DNA of 64,000 bases, taken from assembly GCA_000092065.1 (NCBI GenBank), contig CP000581.1. One strand, given 5' to 3'. This DNA comes from Ostreococcus lucimarinus (taxonomy: Eukaryota). Position numbers and translations under genes: made by a program. A model generated the notes under the pieces. It searched no databases and was not told the origin of the DNA. It saw only the letters and a program-made list of their open reading frames with translations. This document shows, piece by piece, positions 6,108-24,498 of the stretch; within the stretch, counting starts at the first letter, position 1; every line of letters starts with the position of its first letter.

Positions 6108-8195
6108 TTAAAGCTTGGAGACGCCGAAGTTACCGCGGCTCAGCTTTGGTTGCAAGAGCTCGGTGTATCCGGGTGGCGTGTGCTTTCTGTTGAACGGCGC
6201 CGCTTGTACTTCTTCGTACAGTCGGCGGTAGACGTCTCCATCCTTCGCACCGAGCGCGGAGTTTAAGAAATAGTCGTGCAGTCCAAAAGAGTCAACGAGC
6301 GCTGCCGCATCTGGTCGAATTTCAGACAAAAGTTTAAAGATTTCTTGTCGAATCTCGGCCGCTTGTTCGCCGTCGATGTGCCCGTCTTCCAAAAACTCAC
6401 CCATCGTGTCATCCATACCACACAAACCGTGAAGGCAGACGAGGCGATGCAACACGTTTAACGTTTCCGCACTCACTCGAGATCGAGTCTCGTCGTACGC
6501 GAGGACGAAATTATACATGACGACGAACGCGCAATGCGCCTTCGCCGCGCCGATCCACTGTACCATGTGTACTCGCATCGCTTCGTCAGGCGACAAATCG
6601 CCCGTCACCTTGGAGGCTTCCGTGACTAACCGCCACGCCCGATGGGCGTACGCATCGAGGATGGCCTTTTCATCGCGTAAACTTGCGCCGAGAGCAAGCG
6701 CGCTCCGAGAACTTGCACCGTCGAGATAACGGAGCGCGTCCACAGGTGGTTGGCCATTGAGCATTTTTCGGTGCGCCTTTAACAAATACCGAGCGGTTTG
6801 TAAGCAAAGCACGTTGTTGTCACCTTCATACGTCACGTTGGGGGCGTAGGTGGCTAGTGTAGTGCCGAATCCCGCTAGGTTCATGTAGCCGTGACCACCG
6901 CACGTTAGACGACATGCTTCGATGGCATCCTTCGTCGCCCACGAACAGTACGCCTTGAGCCCGCTCGATGTGGCGTGAAGCTCTGGAAGGGCGGAGAAGT
7001 CCTTTTTCTCGCGGGAGTCCCTCTGGAACTCAAAATACATACGGCGCATGTAATCAGACGTGCAGTGAAAGGCAAATGCCTTAGCGAGAATGGGAAACAG
7101 CGTTCGCTGGCTGTGCTGATAATCGATAACTTGGCACTCCATCCCCGTCACCTCGTCGGCGTTCGATTGCCGGCGAACTAAATTGTATCGAATCGCAATA
7201 GTGACGGCTTTCTTCATGTAAAGCGCGGCGTTCATAACGATGTCGGAGCGAATGAAGACCATCGTACCGTACGAAACTTTCGCCACCGGCGCTGGCACGT
7301 ACGTACCGTCGCGTTCAACCTTGGAGTGACCCATCAACATTGCTCGGCGTTGGACGCGAACGTGATCAAATCTCAGAAACCCGTTGTCGACGGCGTTGTA
7401 GCCCATCTTGTTACCGATATCACCTATCGTGCATCCTGGTAACGGCTCATGCGTCTTATTATCGCGAATTTGCACCACGAACGGATGCACGCCATGATCG
7501 ACGCCTTTGGTGAACAATCGAGCCATCACGACGGCGTGTGTGGACGTCTTTCCCAATCCGCCCGGCCACCATTTTGTGCTCGTCAACGTCGGCGAGTGCA
7601 CGACGAACTCCTCGCGCTCTTCATCATAAGTCGCCGTCGTTTCTAGCCCTCTCAAGTAGGTTCCATGTCCGAGCTCCGTCTGCGCGTACGTCCCCACGCA
7701 CTCCAGCTTTACGCACTTTGGAATCCAATACTTTCGCTGTTCCTCGTCCCCTTGCCCTTGAATTGTGGGAATGAACATTCCTAGGTGTAAGTCCAGCCCC
7801 CCGGGTTCGTCGATCAACTCCCGCATGATTCGCGCCACGGCGATGGGTTCTTTCTCATTCATGCTCGCCACCGCGCTCGGCAGCGCCAAGTACATTCGCA
7901 GCGTGCGCTCGTACAGTTCGTCCCGCTCGTCAAAGTACTTGCCTCGCTTACTGAACGCCTCGTTCGTCGTCATCACCGACGCGATTCGCTGACGCAATTT
8001 ATAATTATCCTTCCCTCCCGCGAGCAAGACCTCGAGTTCGCGCGAGTTGAACGACGCCCGCGCGCGCTCGAGTCGCAAATCTTCCTTCGGGTCGCTCGTG
8101 CTCGCCGCGATGACGTCGCTCGATGGTTCGACGAGCGCGCGTGTGTGCGCGTCCACGACGCGGTGGCCGCGACCATCGCGCGAGTCGTCGAGCAT
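6108..8195 (-). CDS. ACX: peroxisomal acyl-CoA oxidase
   Basis: The full ACOX architecture is present (N-terminal, middle and C-terminal acyl-CoA dehydrogenase/oxidase domains, including 'TELGHGTYLRGLET' and 'CGGHGY'). The C-terminal tripeptide is SKL, a PTS1 signal. Confidence 0.85.
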   Translation of the reverse strand: MLDDSRDGRGHRVVDAHTRALVEPSSDVIAASTSDPKEDLRLERARASFNSRELEVLLAGGKDNYKLRQRIASVMTTNEAFSKRGKYFDERDELYERTLRMYLALPSAVASMNEKEPIAVARIMRELIDEPGGLDLHLGMFIPTIQGQGDEEQRKYWIPKCVKLECVGTYAQTELGHGTYLRGLETTATYDEEREEFVVHSPTLTSTKWWPGGLGKTSTHAVVMARLFTKGVDHGVHPFVVQIRDNKTHEPLPGCTIGDIGNKMGYNAVDNGFLRFDHVRVQRRAMLMGHSKVERDGTYVPAPVAKVSYGTMVFIRSDIVMNAALYMKKAVTIAIRYNLVRRQSNADEVTGMECQVIDYQHSQRTLFPILAKAFAFHCTSDYMRRMYFEFQRDSREKKDFSALPELHATSSGLKAYCSWATKDAIEACRLTCGGHGYMNLAGFGTTLATYAPNVTYEGDNNVLCLQTARYLLKAHRKMLNGQPPVDALRYLDGASSRSALALGASLRDEKAILDAYAHRAWRLVTEASKVTGDLSPDEAMRVHMVQWIGAAKAHCAFVVMYNFVLAYDETRSRVSAETLNVLHRLVCLHGLCGMDDTMGEFLEDGHIDGEQAAEIRQEIFKLLSEIRPDAAALVDSFGLHDYFLNSALGAKDGDVYRRLYEEVQAAPFNRKHTPPGYTELLQPKLSRGNFGVSKL

Positions 8196-8336
8196 CGCGC
8201 TCGTCCGCGACGTCGGGTCGGTCGCCGGACGTTCGGCGCGGATCAGTGACGCAAGATGCGCAACAATCCACAGTCATCCACAAGACCTCGTCTGCTCGTC
8301 GCGGGTGCGTTGCATAAAATTACAGCTTTATGTTGA

Positions 8337-9529
8337 CTATTGCGCTTCGCGCTGCTTTCGGCGAGTGTCCAAAACGGCGAGAATGCGGCGCAATGTGATA
8401 CCCTCGCCCGCTCCGTAGCCGTCGACGACGGAGTCCACGCCTGGGAACTCGCCGCCGCGCTGGAGCTGGTTGCGCACCATGACGGAAAAACCACCGGCTG
8501 ACGTGGCTTCGGAACACGTCGCCTGGGATCCACCGATAAAGATGACGTTCTCGGAAGAAAACCCGCGCTGGATGGCGATTTCAGATATCACTTCGGCGGT
8601 GAGCATCGAGCGACGACTCGTGGAGAACATCCCAGCATCGATGATGACGTCCGAGTTGAAGTTTTGGCGCTGCAAATTGCCGCCGATTTCCGGGGCGAGC
8701 AAATCGCCCTTGGTCTTCTTCATCATTCGCGCCGCCTCCGAGCGCGCCTGGGAAGCGATACCTTTGGTGGCGTTGAAACTTTCCGGTGCACCTGTGATGG
8801 AAATCGCCGCCGAGCGAAGTGGACCCAACCCGTGAAGCGCGGCTTCCAACACTCGATCCTCGCTCGTGGACGCCGTCTCGGAGATGATGAGCACTTGTAG
8901 CTTGTCGTTTTCGCGAATACAATCATCCACGAATCGCTCAACCCCGCTTCGAAGCTTGAGCGCGTGCTCGTCAATCATCAACTGGAACTGTTTCTCTTTC
9001 TCGTCGATCAAGTCGCGAAGGAATACGTCCCTCATCCGCGCTTCGTCCTCCCTCGACATCCCCGTCGGCGCGCCCGCGTCGACGACGCCCGCCGCGTCCG
9101 CGAGCGGCACCATATCCCCGAGTCTCTTTATCGCCTTCAAGTACTCGTCGTTATCGATCGCCCTTTTCGCCGTCGCGTTCAACTCGCTCGGGTACCCGTA
9201 AAAGTGAAAGTACCGCTCCAGCATCCCGTACGCGCTCCCGCCGCCGCTTCGCAACAGCGACGCGTACTCCCTGTGGTCCCAGTTCGCGCTCCGCACCCCT
9301 TTCGCCGCGAACGCGCGATTAAACGCGACTCGGTGCCCGTCCCCGTGCACGTCCACGAGCGCGCCGTCGCACTCAATCATCACCAGCGTCGTCTTCCCGT
9401 GCGCGCCGTCCACGACCTCCGTCGACGCGCGCGTCGCGCGCGCGCCCCGTCGACGCGCATTCAAACCACCGCGCCGCGCGAATCGCGTCGCGCGCGCGCC
9501 CGCGCGTCTCGCCGTCGTCATCGGCGTCA

Positions 9530-9536
<7 letters not shown>
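8337..9536 (-). CDS. CbbY-like HAD-superfamily phosphatase with a plastid-type transit peptide
   Basis: 'LVMIECDGALVDVHGDGHRVAFNRAFAAKG...WD...Y..LL..GGG' matches CbbY-like proteins (HAD motif I, DxDG). The N-terminal 'MTMTPMTTARRAGARATRFARRGG' is Ala/Arg/Thr-rich. The ORF-track extension up to 10418 is wrong-frame low-complexity sequence, so the start is placed at M295. Confidence 0.6.

Positions 9537-9537
<1 letters not shown>

Positions 9538-9570
<33 letters not shown>
9538..9570. repeat. (GTC)11 trinucleotide microsatellite
   Basis: This is a perfect gtc repeat on the plus strand. On the minus strand it encodes a poly-Thr run at the N-terminus of the CbbY-like gene. Confidence 0.9.
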
Positions 9571-9574
<4 letters not shown>

Positions 9575-9721
9575 ACGCGGCGCGCGCGACGTCCGCGAAC
9601 GAACGCACGCACCGACGAGTGCGGGCGCGCGTTCGACGTTCGAAATCGAACGCGCGCCGCGTCCGTCCGTCGGTTTTGCGCCACGTGGCGTGTTTTTTCC
9701 ATCCGACGCGCCGCCCGCCAG

Positions 9722-9775
9722 GCGACGACGACGACGACGGATGGACGACGGATGACCGACGACCGACGACCGACG
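9722..9775. repeat. (GACGAC)n / (GACCGAC)n low-complexity repeat in the divergent intergenic region
   Basis: 'cgacgacgacgacgacggatggacgacggatgaccgacgaccgacgaccgacg'. Confidence 0.8.
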
Positions 9776-9974
9776 CTACTCGACCGCGCGACGGGACCGC
9801 GCGAGGACCCGAGCCGAGTCGCGCGCGGTGTCGGTGACCCGGCGCGCGACCCGGCGCGGCGTCGGTGACCGCGGCGTCGGCGCGCGAACGCGCGCGAACG
9901 CGCCTATCCATCGGCGCTCGCCAACGTTCGGGCGCGAGAAAGTTTGAACGCGACGGCGCGCGGAGGCGCGCGGG

Positions 9975-12900
9975 ATGGAGTACGCGGAGTACAGACCCGA
10001 TAGTAAAAACGTCGCGCTGAAGAATCGCAGCGCGTATCGATTGGTCGGACACACGTGCGCGACGTACGCGCAGTACGTGGTGTACGTCGCCGAGGGCGTG
10101 GCGAAGAATACGTTCAACGCGCTGCGAGGGATAAAAGACTGGCGGACGGATGATGAGAATGGGGAAAAGAATGACTTGACGCCGCTGAGCGCGGGTAAGG
10201 CTAAGGACTTTTTCTACATCGGGAACATGTACGGAAACATCGAGGATACGTTTAATCGACCGATTTATTCGTCGCCGGAGGATTTTATCGACGTCGCGAT
10301 TCGGGCGCCGGAACACAACCGCGGGTACTTTGCGCGCTTGCAAGCGACGCCAGAGTCGAGAAAGTGCTTGAATTTGGGGAGTTATAATTATCTCGGGTTC
10401 GGTGGCGTCAACGAGCACTGCACACCGGTTGTGGAGAAATCTTTGAGCGAGTATCCAGTGACGAGCGGATCGCCCGCGGCGGAGCTCGGACGAGACAAAA
10501 ACTTGCGCGAGGTGGAAGATCTCGTGGCCAGATTCGTAGGCAAAGAGAGCGCGTGCGTGGTCGGTATGGGCTTTGCGACGAATAGTACGGTGATTCCGGC
10601 GCTTTGCTCGAAGGGCGACTTGATCATTTCTGATGCCTTAAATCACGCATCGATCGTTGAAGGCGCGCGCTTGAGCGGGGCAAAGATTCGCCCGTTTAAG
10701 CACCAGTGCGTGGGTGACTTGGAACTCATCTTACAAGACGCGGTTTTGGGTGGATACAATTACAACAAGATTGTCGTCATCGTGGAAGGTATTTATTCCA
10801 TGGAAGGTGAAGTTTGCAACTTGAAGCCGATCGTGGAGGTGGCGAAAATGTACGGCGCGCACGTGTACTTGGACGAGGCACACTCCATCGGCGCCGTCGG
10901 TCCGACGGGGCGAGGCGTGTGTGAAGAGCTTGGCGTTGATACCAAGGACATCACCGTCATGATGGGTACTTTTACCAAGTCATTCGGTGCCGCCGGTGGA
11001 TACGTGGCGGGTGATAAAGAGGTTGTGGAAGCCGTGAAGCGCTTTTCGCTCGGGTACACCGAGGCGGTTTCCATGGCGCCGGCGGTGTGCGCACAAGTCC
11101 TCTCATCTTTGCGTTTGATTTCCGGCGAAGACGGCACAGATATCGGAAAGAAAAAGCTTGATGCGCTCCGAGCAAACTCGGAATTTTTTCGTGATGGCTT
11201 AGTAGCGCTTGGCTTGGAAGTTCTCGGCCATCATCCGTCACCAATCATGCCCGTCATGCTCTATCAACCATACAAGATTGGCGATTTCTCTCGTCTTGCT
11301 TTCAATCGTGGTTTAGCCGTGGTCGTCGTCGGTTCTCCCGCCACGCCGATAACGCTGCCGCGTGTGCGCTTCTGCATTTCTGCTGCGCACAAGAGGGCCG
11401 ATCTGGAGAATGCATTGCACGTGATTTCTGACATTGCCGACGAGCTTTGCCTCAAGTTTAAGAAGTATCCCGCGAACCGATTTTTTCCGGGTTCCATCGA
11501 GGAGCTCGAAAAGCGAGAGCACAAAGAGAGTAAGAAACGAGTAGAGTACGCGTTAAAAAACAGAGAAAAGGCTTTGGAGTCTGCGTCTCGACTCCACTGG
11601 GCCCCCGTTTCCGTGGGCAGCAAGGTAAACGAAGAGATGAAACTCGAAGATGCCAAGGTTGAGCAGTTCGCCAAGTCCGAGATGAAGGATTCGTACGACA
11701 TGGTACTTAGCTCGCAAGATTTCTTAGATTTGACCCTCGACGAAACCATGCGATCTCAGTGCGCTGAAACTATTCATCGCTATGGTCTCGGATCGTGCTC
11801 ACCTCGTGGTTTTTATGGCACATTCCGTCCGCACATGGATTTGGAAGCCAAGATTGCGAAATTTCTCGGCGTGGGTGAAGCTGTGCTTTACTCTTTCGGC
11901 GTTTGCACTGCGTCCAGTGTCATTCAAGCTTTAGCGTCAAAAAGTGATGTGGCTGTGGTCGATCGAGGCGTTGGACCGAGTATCATCGCTGGTTTACGTT
12001 TGGCGAAGCTCGAAATTAGATGGTACAATCACGCCGATCCTGCTGATGCGGCGCGTGTTTTTGCGCAAATTGAAACCGAAGATGGTTCCACGTCTGCGAG
12101 GCTCACCCGACCTGTCAGACGTCGATGGTTGATTACTGAAGCATGTTTTGGCTCCACCGGTCGATGTGCGCCTCTCCGTGAACTTGTAGCTTTGAAGGAT
12201 CATCACCATGCACGAATGATTCTCGATGAGTCGTTCTCCTTTGGCGCCATGGGTGAAAGTGGTCGTGGTCTGATTGAACACGTTGGACTACCCAGCAGCT
12301 CTGTTGATGTCATTTGTGCTTCGTTGGAGAACGCGTGCGCATCTGTGGGTGGTTTTGTGGCCGGAGATACGGGAGTCGTGGCTTACCAACGCTTGATGGG
12401 AAGTGGTTACGTCTTCTCAGCGTCCTTACCGCCCTACCTCGCGACGGCTTCTTTACACGCCATCAGCCGCATCGAAGCTGAACCGGCCATGGTTGAAAAG
12501 CTTCATGACGCGGCGCGACGTACTCGCAGCGCACTCGTCAGTGGAGACATTCCCGGTATGACTACTGATGCAGATGCCGACTCGCCAGTCATCCCCGTCA
12601 AGCTCTCGGCCGGCGTTGGGAGCGGGGACGAGAACATGCTTCTGCATCGCATCGCTGCTCGTATGCGAAGTAAAGGATTTGGTGTGTGCGTGGCTCGAGT
12701 CAGTCCTGTCATTTTACCGTCTCACCGCCCCCCGCCGTCCCTTCGTCTATATGCGCACGCCAGTCACACGGCGGACAAGATTGACAAGATGCTCACAGTG
12801 CTTCGAGATGCTGCGTTGGATATCCTCCCGCAGCACGCTTTAGCGTCGCCATTACCGCAAAAGCGACCGTCGCTCGATCATCAAGTTCACGTTTCGCCCA

Positions 12901-14234
12901 GGTCACTATTCACATCGCAGTCGTACTCTACTGATGCGCCAAGTGTGCCGAAAACGTTCAATAGCAAAGAACTCGAAGCCATCAGGAAAAAGATGATGGT
13001 TGAAGAAGAGATGGAAGAAACCAAGGCTTGGAAACTTTCGCTTCTCGATAACGACATCGATGAAGAGCCGAACAGTCTTTCCGTGCCTCTGCTCGTGGGT
13101 TTACTCTGGTGTCACAATTTATTCCGCCGTTACATCATCGGTCAAATCAACATCACCAAACACTTGGTTCCTAACATTCTCACTAAAGTTGGCTTGCATC
13201 CAGAGCAAGTCGGAACCGTCGGTCGCACTTTCCACGTCATTTCAATGTGGTTAGGCAGCCGAAACTTTTACTATTTAGTACTTCCCGTTATCGTGTGGAC
13301 TGTGGACAGCAGTTACGCGCAGTTAATGATGATTATTTACTGCATGAGCTGCGCCTACGGCTGCCTGACGAAGGGTACGATGAGCACTCAGAGCTCGAGT
13401 AAGCGACCGGCGCAAAGTTCTCTCGGCGCTCTAGCTCCTCATAAGGTGTACGCATGGCCATCGATTGCTGGTATGAATGCTTCCGCCATTCCTTTCTTCG
13501 TGCTTCGTTGGAGATACGGCAGCGTGCCGCTTTGGGAGATGGAGCATCCTTACATCGTCGTCGGAGATTACCTACTCGCATTCGCTTATATGATGGCGAT
13601 CGTAATCAGCCGCTTGGCCACTGGTGAGTCGCCAGCCAATATGCAGGGTGGTGTAGTACTCGGTGCGGTCGGGCTGCGACTGGTTTTACCTCTCATGGAT
13701 TGGTGCAACGCCGGCCTCCAGGCTGGGACGGTGATGACGACGCAAGGCGCTTCTTTCCTCGCCTTGACGTCCGCGGCGATTCTTCTTTTCCCTGTCCCGC
13801 TGAACAGCCGAGGTCACATTCTTGTCGCCGCGCAGACGTGCTACCGCCGCATGTGGCGCACCTTGTTTTACATGCTTGCATTCATAGTGGGCGCGATTTG
13901 GCGCGAAAAGCCGACGAAAGTCGCGGCGTTTCCAACGACAATCCGTGAGTGGTTCACCTTGATTGCCGCGAAGGCTATCATCGGCCACATCGTTCTTTAC
14001 GTCGTTGTTCTCGCGATTGGATCCCTCGCTAAGATTAGTTTCGAAGGTGCCCTTCGCCTCTATGTGCGAGAGATTAAACCGCGCGTGCAAAAGCCCGGGC
14101 ACAAGAGCGGCTCCGTCGGCACGGTGCACATGCGCCGCGCCGCACTCTACTTCGTCGAGCTCGCCCAGGACATCACCGCCGGTCTCACCACTGCGAACGT
14201 TGTTCCAAAAATTTTCGACGCGCTCGCAATTTAA
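9975..14234 (+). CDS. single-chain serine palmitoyltransferase (LCB2-like domain, then LCB1-like domain) fused to an unassigned C-terminal polytopic membrane domain
   Basis: This is one uninterrupted 1419-aa frame. Domain 1 (aa ~100-515) has 'LGSYNYLGFGG' and the PLP-lysine motif 'GTFTKSFG', as in LCB2. Domain 2 (aa ~575-955) has 'SPRGFYGTFRPHMDLE' and no catalytic Lys, as in LCB1. After a Ser/Pro-rich linker, aa ~1010-1419 are hydrophobic with about 8-10 predicted TM helices and no motif I can place. Confidence 0.75.
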   Translation: MEYAEYRPDSKNVALKNRSAYRLVGHTCATYAQYVVYVAEGVAKNTFNALRGIKDWRTDDENGEKNDLTPLSAGKAKDFFYIGNMYGNIEDTFNRPIYSSPEDFIDVAIRAPEHNRGYFARLQATPESRKCLNLGSYNYLGFGGVNEHCTPVVEKSLSEYPVTSGSPAAELGRDKNLREVEDLVARFVGKESACVVGMGFATNSTVIPALCSKGDLIISDALNHASIVEGARLSGAKIRPFKHQCVGDLELILQDAVLGGYNYNKIVVIVEGIYSMEGEVCNLKPIVEVAKMYGAHVYLDEAHSIGAVGPTGRGVCEELGVDTKDITVMMGTFTKSFGAAGGYVAGDKEVVEAVKRFSLGYTEAVSMAPAVCAQVLSSLRLISGEDGTDIGKKKLDALRANSEFFRDGLVALGLEVLGHHPSPIMPVMLYQPYKIGDFSRLAFNRGLAVVVVGSPATPITLPRVRFCISAAHKRADLENALHVISDIADELCLKFKKYPANRFFPGSIEELEKREHKESKKRVEYALKNREKALESASRLHWAPVSVGSKVNEEMKLEDAKVEQFAKSEMKDSYDMVLSSQDFLDLTLDETMRSQCAETIHRYGLGSCSPRGFYGTFRPHMDLEAKIAKFLGVGEAVLYSFGVCTASSVIQALASKSDVAVVDRGVGPSIIAGLRLAKLEIRWYNHADPADAARVFAQIETEDGSTSARLTRPVRRRWLITEACFGSTGRCAPLRELVALKDHHHARMILDESFSFGAMGESGRGLIEHVGLPSSSVDVICASLENACASVGGFVAGDTGVVAYQRLMGSGYVFSASLPPYLATASLHAISRIEAEPAMVEKLHDAARRTRSALVSGDIPGMTTDADADSPVIPVKLSAGVGSGDENMLLHRIAARMRSKGFGVCVARVSPVILPSHRPPPSLRLYAHASHTADKIDKMLTVLRDAALDILPQHALASPLPQKRPSLDHQVHVSPRSLFTSQSYSTDAPSVPKTFNSKELEAIRKKMMVEEEMEETKAWKLSLLDNDIDEEPNSLSVPLLVGLLWCHNLFRRYIIGQINITKHLVPNILTKVGLHPEQVGTVGRTFHVISMWLGSRNFYYLVLPVIVWTVDSSYAQLMMIIYCMSCAYGCLTKGTMSTQSSSKRPAQSSLGALAPHKVYAWPSIAGMNASAIPFFVLRWRYGSVPLWEMEHPYIVVGDYLLAFAYMMAIVISRLATGESPANMQGGVVLGAVGLRLVLPLMDWCNAGLQAGTVMTTQGASFLALTSAAILLFPVPLNSRGHILVAAQTCYRRMWRTLFYMLAFIVGAIWREKPTKVAAFPTTIREWFTLIAAKAIIGHIVLYVVVLAIGSLAKISFEGALRLYVREIKPRVQKPGHKSGSVGTVHMRRAALYFVELAQDITAGLTTANVVPKIFDALAI

Positions 14235-14370
14235 AAGACGCTGTAACACCATTCGTTTTTCAATAGTCTTGTCCGCCAGCTGCGAAAGAAAGAAAGCGCC
14301 CGCCTCTCGGAGGTTGTCTTTTCCACAAGATGAGGGAGGTGCCGACGCCAGTTCGCGCTCGACGTCGAAG

Positions 14371-15225
14371 ATGTCCGCCACCGCGAACTCTCGCGCGTAC
14401 GTCGCTGACGTCAAATCCCGGTCTTCGTCCCGTGGACGACGCGCTGTGAAATCGCGCCGCGCGCACACCACGCCGCGCGCCGTCGGCGTGAGCGATGACG
14501 TCGTCACATCTTCGTCGTCGTCCTCTTCTGATTCTATCGAGAACGGGCCGTGTAAGATGAATATTTACGCCCTGGCCGCGTGTGCGGGACGCGGTGAAGC
14601 CGCGACGACGCAGCAGCGCGACGAGATGCGCGCGCTTGTGCGCTCGTTGACGAATCCCACGGCGGCGCCGGCGCGAGACGAGCGGCTCAACGGAACGTGG
14701 GAGTTGGTGTACGAGAGCAGCGGTTTTCCGTTCCGCTCGTCCCCGTTTTTTTGGGCCGTGGGTAAGCTCCTTGGTGAGAATGCTGACTTCTTTTACGGCG
14801 CGCACGAGCATCAGACGAGCATGTTTGGCGGCGGCTGCGGGACGTGCTTGCAGAAAATCTCCGAAGGCGCGCTCGAGAGCGACTGCATCGTCAAGGCTTC
14901 GCTGGGCGTCCCACTCCTCGGATTCGCCCCGCTTTTCTCTGGATACGGTTCCGTGATAACTAAGGGTACGACTCGGGTGTTGGACGACGACACGATCGCG
15001 ATGCCACTGGGATCTTTGTCGACGACGGTGCGGCAAGACGACGCCAATGTTTTGCCAGCGTTGAACTTCTTGAATGGCACCACGGTTCCCGTAGGCGACG
15101 TCATGGGTCGAATCGCCGATGGTGAGTCCGAGGTCACCATGCGCATAACTTACCTCGACGAGGACATGCGCGTGAGCGAGTTAGAGGACGGCACGCAGCT
15201 GGTCTATCGTCGACGCGTCGCGTAA
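14371..15225 (+). CDS. plastid-lipid-associated protein / fibrillin (PAP family)
   Basis: 'LNGTWELVYESSG' is the hallmark fibrillin motif (L.G.W.L.YTS). A Ser/Arg-rich transit-like N-terminus starts at 'MSATANS'. The ORF-track start at 13963 overlaps the SPT gene in another frame and is rejected. Confidence 0.7.
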   Translation: MSATANSRAYVADVKSRSSSRGRRAVKSRRAHTTPRAVGVSDDVVTSSSSSSSDSIENGPCKMNIYALAACAGRGEAATTQQRDEMRALVRSLTNPTAAPARDERLNGTWELVYESSGFPFRSSPFFWAVGKLLGENADFFYGAHEHQTSMFGGGCGTCLQKISEGALESDCIVKASLGVPLLGFAPLFSGYGSVITKGTTRVLDDDTIAMPLGSLSTTVRQDDANVLPALNFLNGTTVPVGDVMGRIADGESEVTMRITYLDEDMRVSELEDGTQLVYRRRVA

Positions 15226-15300
15226 ACATTCTTGTGCAATAAATTTAAGGTTGAACTCGACTTCGACTTCACCGCCTCATACGGTCGCGCGTCGTGTATC

Positions 15301-16707
15301 ATGCGAGCTTACGCGACGAAAGCAAAAGCGTGTGCGAATGTGTGTCGTGCGTCCGACGCTCGTGGCTCGAATCGGCCAACTGTCGCCGCGCGTCGACGTC
15401 GAACGACGACGTTGGCGCACAAAGATAAAGCCGACGTCGTCGTCATCGGTGGCGGACTAGCCGGTCTTGCGGCGTGTAACGAACTAGAAAAACGTGGGGC
15501 CGATTACGTTTTGCTTGAATCCAGCGACGATGTCGGCGGGCGCGTGCGCACAGACATCGTCGATGGGTTCTTGCTCGATCGAGGCTTTGCCATCTTTCTC
15601 ACTGGATATCCTGAGGCGCAGAAAGTGTTGAACTACGACGCGTTGGAGTTGAAGCCGTTTTATGCAGGCGCGGACGTGCGATTCAACGGTGCGTTTCATC
15701 GCGTGGCGGATCCGTTTCGTCACCCGCTGGATGGGTTACAGTCGTTGACGAATCCGGTGGGGAGCGTCGCGGACAAGGTGCTCGTCGGGCTGGTGCGATT
15801 CCAAACCTTGCTAGCGATGGGAACGCTGGATGAAATGATGTCAGCCGACGGAGAGACGACGATCATGAAGCGTTTAAAGGATTCTGGATTCAGTGATGAG
15901 ATGATTGATCGATTTTTTCGTCCATTTATGGCGGGGATTTTCTTCAACCGCGAGCTGACGACATCGAGCAGACTGTTCAATTTCGTGATGCGCATGCTTG
16001 CGACTGGGCAGAACTGTCTGCCGGCCAAAGGGATCGGAGCGGTGAGCGCTCAGCTGCGCGGTTATCTCACGGCTGACAGAGTTCGTGTGAACGCCAAGGT
16101 GACGACATTGAGCGAGCGAGACGCTGACATGTCTAGAACGCTCACGCTTGACAACGGAGAAACAGTGACGGCAAACAAGTCCGTCATCATAGCGTGTGAA
16201 GGGCCTGAGGCGGCCAGATTACTCGGTGGCTCCTTGGAGCAGAGTCCAAGTAAACCAGAGTCCGCAGTCGGCACGATGTGCCTGTATTTCTCCATGGACA
16301 AGGCACCAACGGATGATGCCATTTTGTATTTGGACGGCGACAACAAAGGGGGTATCGTAAATAATTGCTGCTTTCCCAGTAACGTGGCGCCTTCCTATGC
16401 CCCATCCGGGAAAGCGTTGGCTTCTGTGTCTATCATTGGTGTCCCGAGCGAAGACGACGCTAAGATGGAGGCCAAGGTTCGCGATGAACTTTCTTCGTGG
16501 TTTGGTGACGACCAAGTTGCGACGTGGCGTTTGTTACGCACCTATCGCATCCCGTACGCGCAGCCCAATCAAGAGCCTCCGACGAACTTTGCTCGTTCGA
16601 GCGTTTTAGGCAATGGATTATTCATCGCAGGCGATCATCGAAGCTCTTCCACGTTCGACGGTGCGCTCGTTTCCGGAAGAATCGCAGCAGAGGCGGCGAC
16701 CAAATAG
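15301..16707 (+). CDS. FAD-dependent amine-oxidase-family oxidoreductase, probably organellar
   Basis: The dinucleotide-binding motif 'VVVIGGGLAGLAAC...LLESSDDVGGR' is typical of the FAD amine-oxidase/PPOX-like superfamily. A transit-like N-terminus is present. The start could be 15232 or 15301. Confidence 0.6.
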   Translation: MRAYATKAKACANVCRASDARGSNRPTVAARRRRTTTLAHKDKADVVVIGGGLAGLAACNELEKRGADYVLLESSDDVGGRVRTDIVDGFLLDRGFAIFLTGYPEAQKVLNYDALELKPFYAGADVRFNGAFHRVADPFRHPLDGLQSLTNPVGSVADKVLVGLVRFQTLLAMGTLDEMMSADGETTIMKRLKDSGFSDEMIDRFFRPFMAGIFFNRELTTSSRLFNFVMRMLATGQNCLPAKGIGAVSAQLRGYLTADRVRVNAKVTTLSERDADMSRTLTLDNGETVTANKSVIIACEGPEAARLLGGSLEQSPSKPESAVGTMCLYFSMDKAPTDDAILYLDGDNKGGIVNNCCFPSNVAPSYAPSGKALASVSIIGVPSEDDAKMEAKVRDELSSWFGDDQVATWRLLRTYRIPYAQPNQEPPTNFARSSVLGNGLFIAGDHRSSSTFDGALVSGRIAAEAATK

Positions 16708-21711: not shown

Positions 21712-24498
21712 TCACGAGTACGATTGCCAGTTGAATGCGATATCTAGTTCCCCACTTTTAGCGTTACCAACCTTGAACCTAGCTTCCATTGATCCACCGT
21801 GTTCTAAGATGGTGGCGATGGGTACTTCAAGGTTACCCATAAAGTTACTCTTTGTTCCGATCGGGAAGGTTGAATCGACGTCGAACAACTCGATTATGAC
21901 CTTGCTTTGTTCGCTCGCCGGGGAGAATTCGAATCTTGCATTGAACTCTGGATTGAGATTCTTGTAATGTACCTTGGAAGTGTACACGATGAAATCTTTT
22001 CCATCCTTGTTTTTCTTACGCGCGCTTTTGCGCGTCTCCTTATCCATCAAGGCGGAGCTTGAACTCATGCTCTCAACTGGAAGCTTGACTTTGACGTAGG
22101 GATCAGATAACCCGTTTGAGTCCATCACCTGCAGATTGATTCCGCGAATCACATGAACAGTCAACAACCCGAGCCCCGCAAAGAGCTCCTTTGCGGCAAC
22201 GCTACCAAATTGTATGAATTGAGTATTCAGCAATAGTCGCATCGGTGGCTTCTTCACGTTCCCAGCTACCTGCTCAGGGAAATCGAGCCACAATTCTTTT
22301 TCGGCGCCATCTTCCGTTGCGTCTTTGATTGTATCAATCCGCACCTCTGTCATCGCGAGTCGAGTTTCGTAGCTAAGCGGGTCTGAATCATAGTCGAGCA
22401 CGCTTACTTTCAGCGTGCGTAAGTCAACGTCATCGACCGGAATGTAAAAAGTCTCATTCCAAATTGGATCTTCGTTGTTCATCATGGTGGTAGTTTGCAC
22501 TTGTAACCCATGCTTTTTGACGAACATCTTCACATACGGATCTGTTTTCGAAAGTAGATCCGTTCTCGGAATGTTTTCAGCTCGCACCACAGTCGCCTTG
22601 AGAACCCCAGTGTTACGCAATTGCAACATGTGAGTATCGTACCACTTGAAGGGTTTGATTTCTCCGTCCGGCATGGTAATTGGATCGAAGTTGAAGCTCA
22701 AAGGTATGACTAGTCGTTCGGGCTGAATGAACATGTCACCAAGTAGGTCGGCAACGAATTCTTCCAACCATTTATCGACGACATTGTACAGCACATCCAA
22801 ACCACTAGGAAGCTCGCAATGAAATTCAACGATGGGTCGTTCTGTCATGGAAACTGTTAAACCACCGAGCGGACTTGGGAGTGGCACCAGCGGGTTGAGA
22901 GTGATTCTCAATTTCGTATAGATTTCGAGATCTTTGACCGCAATATTTATATCCGCTCCAATGTGCGTCTTTGCAGCGAGGACGATGTTCGATTTCCCAG
23001 CCCAAGCAAAATCTACGTCGATGCTCGTCGCCATTCCTTCAGCTTTCGTACCTACGTAGGTGAAGTTTCTGAAGACGAATGGGTTCTCACCAAAATCAAG
23101 TTCTTTAAACGTCAAACGCTTCAACATAGACGGTCTAGTCGCTTCCATGAGCGGATCAAGTATTTCTCGCAACATACCACTGACTGCTTTGTTGTAGAAC
23201 GGCCACACGGTAGTCAATAAATTGTTGAGCCAAGGAACGAGTTCGTCAGGGCGATACCTTGCCCACACCGGCGCTGCGTTCATGTACTGCATATCATTTG
23301 TACGCACGGCAGGTAAGCCCATAAGCTCAGTCATGCGTGCTGCATTCTTTTCAATTTCCAAGAAGGCCGATAACACTGCATCGATCTCTGCTCGAGATTG
23401 AAGACGCGTCTCGTGCTTCCTCACTACCAACCATCCACCTATGAAAGCGAAGAGAAAAGAGAAAACACCTCGGTTATTGCTCAACCAGTCGATGCTATAA
23501 ATAACCGTCACCTGCCACGTGAAGCAGATCGCACAGATGATCGCCGTGGCAATCTGCGACTGAACCAACGAAGCGCGCCAAAACATGCGCTCAATTTGTA
23601 TCTTTAAACTCAGCAGCACGTACACGATCAGAATGGTGGACGCAAACGCAAGCAATCTGCGAATATGCGATGCCGTCGAGGCGTCTGGCGAAAGCTTTCC
23701 GGAAAAGACGACGTTCGGCACATAAGTCATTGCGAGCATAGCCAACATTCCAATTTTACTCAAGTTCAATCCGGCCTCCTTGGCCGAAGACTTCAACATC
23801 TCCGGCGTCGGTCCGTTGAAAATCGGACCAGTTCCAGGAATATACGTCGAAAAGTCAGCTATATCGAACACGTTTCTCTCTCGCAGTACGTGGTCGCCTC
23901 GAGAAAGATCGCCGATGGCATATGCCTTTGGCTTTTGCACCGTATCTTCTTGCTTGATATCCGGTGGTGCGATCCATTCAGGACCTTCCCATTTCGGTAA
24001 CACGTTGGGAGCTAATTTAGGTTCATTTTCGTATCTCTTAAGTCGAGCGCTCAACTCCACAGCTTCTTCCGTCTTCGTAGCTTTATCGCGGATGTCCAGG
24101 CGCAGACGAGAGTCGTCATCGTTGTCGGCGAGAATCTTTCGCGTTTGATCGCTCAAGGATTCATTCCGACGCGGAGTGAACGTATCGATCCTTTGTATGT
24201 CTTCATCAATCATATCGTCCTCATTACCCGCCGCCAGCGCGCTTTTCTTCTTCTCCTTGAAATCCTTGCTCTTTGGCTTCTGAGTCTTCGACGCGGTCGA
24301 AGCGTGCTTGTCGTCATCGCTCCTCGGAAGGATGCCACTGATATCGCCGCTCATATTTCCACTGCTAGTTCTTAGCTCCTCCGAGGATTTCAAGCTCGCA
24401 GCTGACTCCAAACGTCGTCCATCGGCCGTCTTTCGTAATTGGAACTCCGTCTCCTCGGCCTCGGGAGCGTCGACGCTTTTCGAGCAACACGAACCCAT
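21712..24498 (-). CDS. extended-synaptotagmin/tricalbin-like protein (TM hairpin, SMP domain, two C2 domains)
   Basis: The N-terminal MGSCCSKS suggests myristoylation/palmitoylation. There are hydrophobic hairpins, an SMP-like region ('LTFKELDFGENPF') and C2 domains ('TDPYVKMFV', 'SDPYVKVKL'). Confidence 0.75.
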   Translation of the reverse strand: MGSCCSKSVDAPEAEETEFQLRKTADGRRLESAASLKSSEELRTSSGNMSGDISGILPRSDDDKHASTASKTQKPKSKDFKEKKKSALAAGNEDDMIDEDIQRIDTFTPRRNESLSDQTRKILADNDDDSRLRLDIRDKATKTEEAVELSARLKRYENEPKLAPNVLPKWEGPEWIAPPDIKQEDTVQKPKAYAIGDLSRGDHVLRERNVFDIADFSTYIPGTGPIFNGPTPEMLKSSAKEAGLNLSKIGMLAMLAMTYVPNVVFSGKLSPDASTASHIRRLLAFASTILIVYVLLSLKIQIERMFWRASLVQSQIATAIICAICFTWQVTVIYSIDWLSNNRGVFSFLFAFIGGWLVVRKHETRLQSRAEIDAVLSAFLEIEKNAARMTELMGLPAVRTNDMQYMNAAPVWARYRPDELVPWLNNLLTTVWPFYNKAVSGMLREILDPLMEATRPSMLKRLTFKELDFGENPFVFRNFTYVGTKAEGMATSIDVDFAWAGKSNIVLAAKTHIGADINIAVKDLEIYTKLRITLNPLVPLPSPLGGLTVSMTERPIVEFHCELPSGLDVLYNVVDKWLEEFVADLLGDMFIQPERLVIPLSFNFDPITMPDGEIKPFKWYDTHMLQLRNTGVLKATVVRAENIPRTDLLSKTDPYVKMFVKKHGLQVQTTTMMNNEDPIWNETFYIPVDDVDLRTLKVSVLDYDSDPLSYETRLAMTEVRIDTIKDATEDGAEKELWLDFPEQVAGNVKKPPMRLLLNTQFIQFGSVAAKELFAGLGLLTVHVIRGINLQVMDSNGLSDPYVKVKLPVESMSSSSALMDKETRKSARKKNKDGKDFIVYTSKVHYKNLNPEFNARFEFSPASEQSKVIIELFDVDSTFPIGTKSNFMGNLEVPIATILEHGGSMEARFKVGNAKSGELDIAFNWQSYS

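Follow-up and report, generated by a model that had tools for sequence, protein, structure and literature searches.

What has been joined to serine palmitoyltransferase (SPT) in Ostreococcus lucimarinus? A 64,000-nucleotide stretch of contig CP000581.1 from this green alga (GenBank assembly GCA_000092065.1; hereafter the window) holds, at 9975-14234 on the plus strand, an open reading frame (ORF) that a first-pass annotation had described as a single frame of 1419 codons, combining the two kinds of SPT subunit, LCB2 and LCB1, with a polytopic C-terminal membrane domain of unassigned nature. The frame itself is borne out by the ORF listing and by the translation, which runs from an ATG through 1419 codons to the stop without interruption. 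SPT catalyses the committed, rate-limiting step of sphingolipid synthesis, and its known control is exerted by separate small subunits, ORM/ORMDL and ssSPT/Tsc3; a large membrane domain on the same chain therefore calls for an identity and a role. Based on our findings, we propose that this C-terminal domain (hereafter the C-domain) is probably a non-catalytic membrane module of SPT, derived from the PAP2 superfamily and, within it, from the sphingosine-1-phosphate (S1P) phosphatase type. Rather than founding a new family, it is a PAP2 domain of the S1P-phosphatase-like kind, strongly diverged, devoid of the catalytic histidines (His) and fused to SPT.

Queried by itself, the C-domain is almost silent. 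It has no match in Pfam or NCBIfam, with PF01569 (PAP2) absent even at E <= 10; phmmer against the PDB gave a chance match only; a profile of 16 window-type C-domains (A1) found nothing in the PDB; and a word-indexed homology search returned 3 fragments only, while the same search with the full-length query retrieved full-length proteins. Such silence, of the single sequence and of its own clade profile alike, is what speaks for a fold or family that is new and has no kinship with the known proteins of sphingolipid metabolism. The full-length search, however, also brought up LCB2-LCB1 fusions of 1200-1520 residues, including one of the haptophyte Diacronema lutheri, that carry a precomputed C-terminal PF01569. 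When 13 C-domains of such PAP2-annotated fusions were collected (A2), all 13 matched PF01569 (best E 2.1e-9), and hhalign aligned A1 with A2 over the whole domain (354 columns, probability 100, E 1.7e-43). A1 likewise aligned with A4, a set of 20 stand-alone proteins with intact motifs (352 columns, probability 99.9, E 3.3e-37). Against the PDB, the A2 profile reached LpxE (E 1.2e-5) and PgpB (2e-3), and the A4 profile reached PgpB 5jki (1.6e-14) and G6PC1 (3e-5).

Structure prediction leads to the same place. Our AlphaFold2 (AF2) model of residues 1030-1419, built on A1, has a mean predicted local distance difference test (pLDDT) of 82 and a predicted template modelling score (pTM) of 0.81; its 13 helices, about 9-10 of them of membrane-spanning length, agree with the hydrophobic domain of some 8-10 helices described at first pass. 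In a Foldseek search of the PDB, five entries of human G6PC1 came out on top (probability 1.00, E 3e-4 to 1e-3, about 390 columns), Bacillus subtilis PgpB followed, and the remaining matches were noise. The C-domain has the core helical PAP2 fold, and 280 of its residues align to G6PC1, a protein with nine transmembrane (TM) helices. From the profile matches together with the AF2 and Foldseek results, we conclude that the C-domain is a PAP2-superfamily member of the extended nine-helix type. The closest solved structure is human G6PC1 (9j7v/9jtl), at only 10-13% sequence identity; unlike the C-domain, G6PC1 has the full catalytic set K76/R83/H119/R170/H176 and a sugar-phosphate pocket (PMC11789071). 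The two hhalign results and the structural alignment to G6PC1 refute a new fold, to which we give practically no chance. Because confident homology to a known family was found, the novelty of an unassigned domain is removed, and the suggestion of a new membrane enzyme gives way to a diverged PAP2-superfamily domain of the 9-TM, S1P-phosphatase-like type. The first-pass annotation had also seen no ORM or ssSPT signature, and Pfam indeed has no match. An ORM- or ssSPT-like subunit was considered and rejected on the same Pfam result and because the small SPT-ORM subunits, present in the PDB, are not among the fold matches, which PAP2 proteins lead.

To which branch of the superfamily does the C-domain belong? 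A profile of 19 fused C-domains (A3), run against 1.84 billion representative proteins, gave 1853 matches at E <= 1e-3, 490 at <= 1e-10 and 44 at <= 1e-30. The matches that are not fusions are mostly stand-alone proteins of 350-500 residues, which cover almost the whole profile and have intact motifs (K[DN]xxxLPRP, [FY]G[WFML]PSTH[AS]xN and SR[LMI]Y[LM]G[VMA]HSPxD[VI]xxG). The homology to stand-alone proteins is full-length (352 columns) and takes in the extended architecture beyond the six-TM PAP2 core. Their database names are generic, 'membrane-associated phospholipid phosphatase' or 'PAP2'; we take their motif signature to be that of sphingosine-1-phosphate / long-chain-base (LCB)-phosphate phosphatases. 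A sequence presumed to be human SGPP1 aligned with A4 at E 5.4e-51 over 310 columns, with the database protein P0340 at 35% identity over the full length (E 1e-91) and with A1 at E 1.3e-5 in the same motif register. As far as sequence goes, these alignments show that the presumed SGPP1 belongs to the stand-alone phosphatase family. Protist members of that family (P0220, P0222, P0224 and P0226 among others), themselves putative S1P phosphatases, are homologous to the C-domain over their full length, about 350 columns, and share with it the motif contexts 'FGWPS..xNAxxLPFF' and 'SR....SPA[DN]VQGG'; they keep K-x6-RP, PSTH and SR-x5-H-x3-D, whereas the C-domain has lost both His and is covalently joined to SPT. 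A neighbour-joining tree, built from saturated distances, combined 31 fused domains with 90 stand-alone ones that had been chosen for intact motifs; in it, the fused domains formed one bipartition in 47 of 60 bootstraps and the window-type clade did so in 60 of 60, and the neighbours of the fused domains were stand-alone proteins ending in 'SPADVQGG'. The tree is suggestive, no more, of a single fusion event between SPT and the PAP2-like domain. On this picture the C-domain would have descended from the 9-10-helix sphingoid-base-1-phosphate phosphatase type (SGPP/Lcb3-like), the type to which animal SGPP1/2, yeast Lcb3/Ysr3 and plant SPP1 belong.

How much of the active site is left? In PAP2 enzymes, the lysine (Lys) and arginine (Arg) of motif C1 and the Arg of C3 hold the phosphate, and the C2 His supplies a proton; in G6PC1, the phospho-enzyme is formed on the C3 His, which acts as nucleophile, and the H176A mutant is inactive (PMC11789071). 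We counted these positions in 31 fused domains, 17 of the window type and 14 of the haptophyte type, using an L-INS-i alignment and the hhalign register. At C1, the window protein keeps K1133 and has its RP only after 10 residues ('KGTMSTQSSSKRP'), which aligns as a 4-residue insertion; several members of the window clade lack the RP. At C2, the His is replaced by A1165, and it is absent from 28 of the 31 domains, surviving in three only ('WPSIHCM'). At C3, S1212-R1213 is kept, the nucleophile His has become E1218 and the Asp has become N1222. No fused domain has the C3 His: window-type domains have Asp (15), Glu (1) or Gly (1) in its place, and haptophyte-type domains have Ser (11), Ala, Thr or Cys (1 each). 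The C1 Lys, the C2 Pro-Ser and the C3 Arg are invariant in all 31, and 10 of the 14 invariant positions in A3 lie in or beside the motif remnants (K104, W132, P133, S134, A140, P144, R184, P191, G197 and G201). The first-pass annotation was literally right that KX6RP, PSGH and SRX5HX3D are not intact; its exclusion of PAP2 on that ground did not hold, the domain being a diverged PAP2. As a separate observation, the fused proteins P0045, P0048 and P0050, of protist origin, retain the C2 His and an intact C1 and have Ser at the C3 nucleophile position; this sub-group may represent an intermediate stage of active-site decay.

The C-domain is under purifying selection. In a comparison with three Ostreococcus relatives, its proportion of nonsynonymous differences (pN) was 0.11-0.13 against a proportion of synonymous differences (pS) of 0.68-0.80, the latter near saturation; pN was 0.05-0.07 in the LCB2 part and 0.07-0.085 in the LCB1 part. 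Taken together, the loss of catalytic residues, the retention of binding residues and the long-term purifying selection make up a pseudo-enzyme pattern. With the C3 His gone in all 31 fused domains, the C-domain is a PAP2 member in structure and evolution and not a canonical catalytic one. Its sequence predicts that the canonical mechanism of LCB-1-phosphate hydrolysis has been lost, and very probably it no longer hydrolyses lipid phosphates. The PLPPR/PRG proteins offer a precedent for such a PAP2 pseudo-enzyme: they have PAP2 folds with substituted C1-C3 residues and no detectable phosphatase activity, and they still modulate lysophosphatidic acid signalling (PMC9520309). They differ from the C-domain in being six-TM proteins of the lipid phosphate phosphatase (LPP) type, located in the animal plasma membrane and bearing cytosolic tails; they are not of the S1P phosphatase type and are not fused to a biosynthetic enzyme.

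It might be argued that the C-domain is still an enzyme, either a non-canonical phosphatase or phosphotransferase that acts on LCB phosphates through an Asp/Glu or Ser nucleophile, or a device for channelling 3-ketosphinganine. The invariant phosphate-binding Lys and Arg, the invariant Pro-Ser turn and the strong constraint would fit such an activity, and Ser and Asp do serve as nucleophiles in other phosphatase families. However, the nucleophile position differs between the sister clades (Asp/Glu versus Ser/Ala/Thr/Cys) and is Gly or Ala in some members, which makes one conserved catalytic chemistry unlikely. The loss of this His inactivates G6PC1, the PLPPRs with comparable substitutions have no phosphatase activity that could be detected, and PAP2 chemistry has no link to 3-ketosphinganine, which carries no phosphate. 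We consider a surviving enzyme improbable and prefer the pseudo-enzyme reading.

What could a pseudo-enzyme do for SPT? The two halves that precede it are as the first-pass annotation had them, an LCB2-type part with 'TFTKSFG' (at residue 332, nt 10968) and an LCB1-type part with 'GFYGTF' (at residue 612) and no catalytic Lys; we find Asn786 at that position. Among solved structures, the counterparts of residues 29-500 are Arabidopsis LCB2a (7yjk_B, E 7.6e-132) and human SPTLC2 (E 7.5e-118), and those of residues 541-949 are Arabidopsis LCB1 (7yjm_A, E 3.1e-76) and human SPTLC1 (E 2.5e-72); Pfam recognises two Aminotran_1_2 stretches. The LCB2 part has the alpha-oxoamine-synthase fold and the Lys that binds pyridoxal phosphate (PLP), its column (K335) being nearly invariant in alignment A5, and the LCB1 part has the homologous fold without the PLP Lys. 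Both halves lie in one ORF with LCB2 first, an order found in many fused homologues in the full-length search. A catalytic LCB2-type half and a non-catalytic LCB1-type half in one chain would constitute a single-chain SPT.

One element of LCB1 is missing. Its N-terminal TM helix was not found in the alignment, which begins at residue 75 of Arabidopsis LCB1 (7yjk_A), nor in a Kyte-Doolittle scan, which gave no segment >=1.5 upstream of residue 636; the LCB2-LCB1 connector of 40 residues is hydrophilic. Since residues 501-540 contain no TM segment, we regard the LCB1 helix as absent. The LCB2 part, for its part, keeps its N-terminal membrane-associated segment, in which an alignment of the N-termini places Tyr81 as the equivalent of Tyr55 of Arabidopsis LCB2a, a residue that contacts ceramide in the ORM1 complex (PMC10058238). 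After LCB1 comes the Ser/Pro/acidic linker of the first-pass annotation, and residues 951-1029 are indeed rich in these residues. In a two-domain AF2 model of the LCB1 part and the C-domain, both domains are confident and the pTM is 0.59, with linker pLDDT <50 at model residues 422-497 (residues 962-1037 of the protein). From the low linker pLDDT and a pTM of only 0.59, we read the linker as a flexible tether with no fixed interface predicted, so that about 75 flexible residues would tether the SPT halves to the polytopic membrane domain. In this arrangement, the C-domain would provide a polytopic anchor in the endoplasmic reticulum (ER) that replaces the missing LCB1 helix, one of the two membrane helices native to SPT, and orients the fused SPT, and we lean towards the view that it does anchor and orient the enzyme in the ER membrane in this way.

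Is anchoring all that it does? If the C-domain were only an anchor or scaffold, it would be an ex-enzyme kept for its helices, with a pocket that senses no ligand. That reading suits the missing LCB1 helix, the flexible linker without a predicted interface and the loss of both catalytic His. It does not suit the conservation, which is centred on the motif remnants and not spread over the helices, or the fact that each clade holds largely to its own substitutes for the lost His (Asp in 15/17, Ser in 11/14, Tyr in 9/14); moreover, a plain anchor would not need 390 residues at a pN/pS of about 0.15. We therefore find an anchor without further function rather unlikely. On our preferred reading of a PAP2-derived module, the vestigial pocket may bind a sphingolipid intermediate, for which LCB phosphates, the ancestral substrate class, are the obvious candidate, and its occupancy could influence SPT in a manner analogous to ceramide sensing by ORM. 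ORM/ORMDL is a small polytopic ER protein on SPT that binds ceramide and gates the enzyme (PMC10058238). It is a functional analogue only, exemplifying the kind of role proposed here, with no relationship in sequence or fold; ORM is a separate four-helix subunit that associates non-covalently, whereas the C-domain is covalently attached. By this analogy, a sphingolipid metabolite bound in the pocket could make SPT activity follow lipid levels, in a way loosely comparable to control by ORM/ORMDL; we regard this as conceivable, if doubtful. The stronger version, in which the dead domain is a built-in sensor that binds an LCB phosphate or sphingolipid intermediate without turnover and signals through the tether, as an independent covalent counterpart of ORM/ORMDL, is more speculative again. 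The first-pass suggestion of a covalently attached anchor or regulatory subunit is still the best functional guess.

Several observations weigh against these proposals. The window domain has no direct match to PF01569, and in A1 only 1 of the 16 members reaches E 0.026; its assignment to PAP2 thus depends on fold and on profile-profile comparison. The stand-alone relatives are named 'S1P phosphatases' after a sequence that is presumed to be SGPP1. The two-domain AF2 model does not place the LCB1 part and the C-domain in confident contact. The Asp/Glu of the window type and the Ser of the haptophyte type at the nucleophile position leave room for a non-canonical activity; the sensor idea is also weakened by the possibility that a carboxylate there would drive a phosphate ligand away. 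Because the LCB2 N-terminal segment and Tyr81 are retained, ordinary ORM-type control may still operate. Finally, a Micromonas-like transcript marked 'type:complete' (P0024, 996 residues) ends after LCB1 without a C-domain. P0024 stops about 40 residues past LCB1, and its tail does not resemble the linker found in full-length relatives; an isoform that lacks the PAP2-like domain, intron retention or an error of assembly could each account for it.

Does one gene encode all three parts? The membrane domain might instead be encoded by a gene of its own, which starts near 12993 and happens to follow the SPT gene directly and in frame. There is an internal ATG at 'MMVEEEME', which begins at residue 1007 (nt 12993, not about 12996 as first given); gene callers on metagenomes sometimes give products of 429-581 residues that start inside the ORF; and P0024 lacks the C-domain. 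Those short products, however, are alternative-start calls on identical sequence in the same frame. The linker frame is open in every relative examined, from Ostreococcus to haptophyte-type algae, despite divergence in linker sequence and length, and linker indels among four Ostreococcus genes are whole codons only. Five further Ostreococcus-like clusters, and some fourteen Mamiellophyceae-like clusters at a greater distance, have three-part full-length ORFs of 1416-1575 residues; the full-length arrangement is likewise present in Cymbomonas tetramitiformis (46% identity at 100% coverage) and in two chlorarachniophytes, Lotharella globosa and Bigelowiella natans (about 40% identity). A UniRef protein of Ostreococcus mediterraneus is 84% identical to the window protein. 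Transcripts point the same way: a 'type:complete' MMETSP transcript encodes 1419 residues with 4 differences from the window protein, other 'type:complete' transcripts span the fusion in O. mediterraneus (1417 residues) and Bigelowiella (1363 residues), and P0175, a transcript incomplete at its 5' end, starts in the middle of LCB2, covers LCB1 and continues into the C-domain. With single complete transcripts and in-frame ORFs in many species, the fusion asserted at first pass is genuine, and we hold a separate gene to be very improbable; as far as sequence goes, an additional internal transcript in O. lucimarinus is conceivable. The exact fusion protein is listed in 471 blocks of a metagenome and genome assembly collection and is found on many long contigs. 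This abundance and the purifying selection rule out a wrong-frame or non-coding reading and uphold the earlier judgement that the ORF is real coding sequence.

Some irregular gene models were also seen among the homologues. On a polished long-read metagenome contig (L001:7823-11557), the orthologous SPT gene is split into many small ORFs. P0003 compared with P0002 has short out-of-frame stretches that look like residual frameshift errors and not introns. Two Leersia perrieri proteins named 'serine C-palmitoyltransferase' (P0040 and P0041, about 960-1040 residues) look like gene-model fusions, as does an 1871-residue 'LCB2b' of Symbiodinium necroappetens with a ribosomal L15 domain (P0070).

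How does the protein compare with known SPT fusions? The single-chain SPT of the coccolithovirus EhV has, as here, LCB2 followed by LCB1 in one polypeptide (PMC5371807). The LCB2-LCB1 fusions of Perkinsus and dinoflagellates have the same order, and this fusion is common in alveolates. Unlike the window protein, the EhV and alveolate fusions (about 1000-1130 residues, covering the first ~60% of the query) end after LCB1 and have no PAP2-like domain, as judged by length and coverage. No viral relative of the C-domain was found in a related-loci search made with a single protein, and BFVD gave only weak six-TM PAP2 matches; a viral origin of the C-domain was discarded on these two results. A close parallel is the haptophyte-type SPT-PAP2 fusion (for example Diacronema lutheri KFE25_005978, P0054, 1498 residues), which has the same order of LCB2, LCB1, linker and a PAP2-like domain of 9-10 helices; that domain is homologous to the C-domain over its whole length and shares with it the loss of the C3 His. 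The haptophyte type keeps the C1 KX6RP and the C3 Asp and is recognised by Pfam PAP2, whereas the window clade has a respaced or missing C1, Asp/Glu and not Ser in place of the C3 His, and Asn in place of the C3 Asp, and is blank in Pfam. In databases, proteins of the KFE25_005978 type are named only 'serine C-palmitoyltransferase' or hypothetical protein.

A literature search of incomplete coverage found no paper that describes the SPT-PAP2 fusion, and none was found that links ORMDL to Ostreococcus; a survey of sphingolipid genes in O. tauri names SPT and is silent on its architecture. The architecture was already visible, for haptophyte homologues, in precomputed domain tables (PF01569). 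It was unexpected that the enzyme which limits the rate of sphingolipid synthesis in major marine phytoplankton should carry a conserved pseudo-phosphatase, and the fusion suggests a physical link between the entry step of the pathway and its LCB-phosphate branch. With the C-domain there is now a candidate for another way of anchoring SPT or of controlling it by feedback. If the sensor reading were true, it would apply to Mamiellophyceae, chlorarachniophytes and haptophyte-type algae alike, groups that jointly account for a large part of the marine phytoplankton. Sphingolipid metabolism is important for the interplay of algae and their viruses, as in the coccolithovirus system, which makes the architecture of the host SPT ecologically interesting. 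In practical terms, the Pfam-blank SPT tail of about 400 residues in Ostreococcus, Bathycoccus and Micromonas can now be given the annotation 'PAP2-like, S1P-phosphatase-related, catalytic His residues lost'.

Table 1. Parts of the SPT fusion gene, in window coordinates, with the evidence for each.
Feature	Position	Strand	Evidence
Single-chain LCB2-LCB1-PAP2-like protein	9975..14234	+	ORF translation; long contigs with the exact protein; full-length homologues
LCB2-type PLP aminotransferase domain, residues 29-500	10059..11474	+	Match to 7yjk_B; Pfam Aminotran_1_2, 3e-72
N-terminal membrane-associated segment and Tyr81 of the LCB2 part	within 10059..11474	+	N-terminal alignment
Codon of the PLP-binding lysine K335 in 'TFTKSFG'	10977..10979	+	Motif position
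Hydrophilic LCB2-to-LCB1 linker, residues 501-540, no TM segment	11475..11594	+	Alignment and Kyte-Doolittle scan
LCB1-type domain, residues 541-950	11595..12824	+	Match to 7yjm_A
Asn786 at the PLP-lysine position, in 'SLENACASVGGF' starting at residue 783	12330-12332	+	Alignment
Ser/Pro/acidic linker, residues 951-1029, with 'MMVEEEME'; predicted flexible tether	12825..13061	+	Low pLDDT; in-frame indels
C-terminal PAP2-fold domain, residues 1030-1419, S1P-phosphatase-like, ~9-10 membrane helices, catalytic histidines lost	13062..14231	+	
Remnant of PAP2 motif C1, K1133...R1144-P1145 (K-x10-RP, not K-x6-RP)	13371..13409	+	Alignment
Remnant of PAP2 motif C2, P1162-S1163-I1164-A1165 (PSGH -> PSIA)	13458..13469	+	hhalign; alignment
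Remnant of PAP2 motif C3, S1212-R1213...E1218...N1222 (SRX5HX3D -> SR-x4-E-x3-N)	13608..13640	+	hhalign register; counts

Base composition is uneven along the gene. GC content drops to about 0.49 at 12750-13500, where the linker passes into the C-domain, from 0.54-0.57 in the flanking sequence; at third codon positions, the LCB1 part and linker have a GC of 0.52-0.54 and the LCB2 part and C-domain one of 0.64-0.66.

The genes around the SPT fusion encode an acyl-CoA oxidase, a PAP-fibrillin, an amine oxidase, the condensin subunit Cnd2, a DEAH helicase and an SMP-C2 tether, and they are ordinary nuclear genes of a compact green alga. From 6108 to 16707, the order is acyl-CoA oxidase, a gene of unknown nature, the SPT fusion, PAP-fibrillin, amine oxidase and thiamine pyrophosphokinase, and the same order is found on L002-L005, contigs with the same gene. 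Three Ostreococcus relatives (L010-L012) preserve the SPT-fibrillin(-amine oxidase) neighbourhood, and part of the order is seen again in the Bathycoccus-like contigs L001 and L008. The divergent gene upstream of SPT (8337-9911, minus strand) is 524 residues long by one gene caller and 347 by others and has no Pfam match. Its first ~130 codons are Arg-rich and include a run of 11 Thr, and 9000-9990 has 68-72% GC against about 55% in the neighbourhood; these codons are probably a 5' region or a transit peptide, not all of it coding. At 21712-24498 on the minus strand, a 927-residue protein combines an SMP lipid-binding domain with two C2 domains, in the manner of an ER-plasma-membrane tether of the tricalbin/extended-synaptotagmin type; the presence of this lipid-handling gene 7.5 kb from the SPT gene is probably a coincidence.

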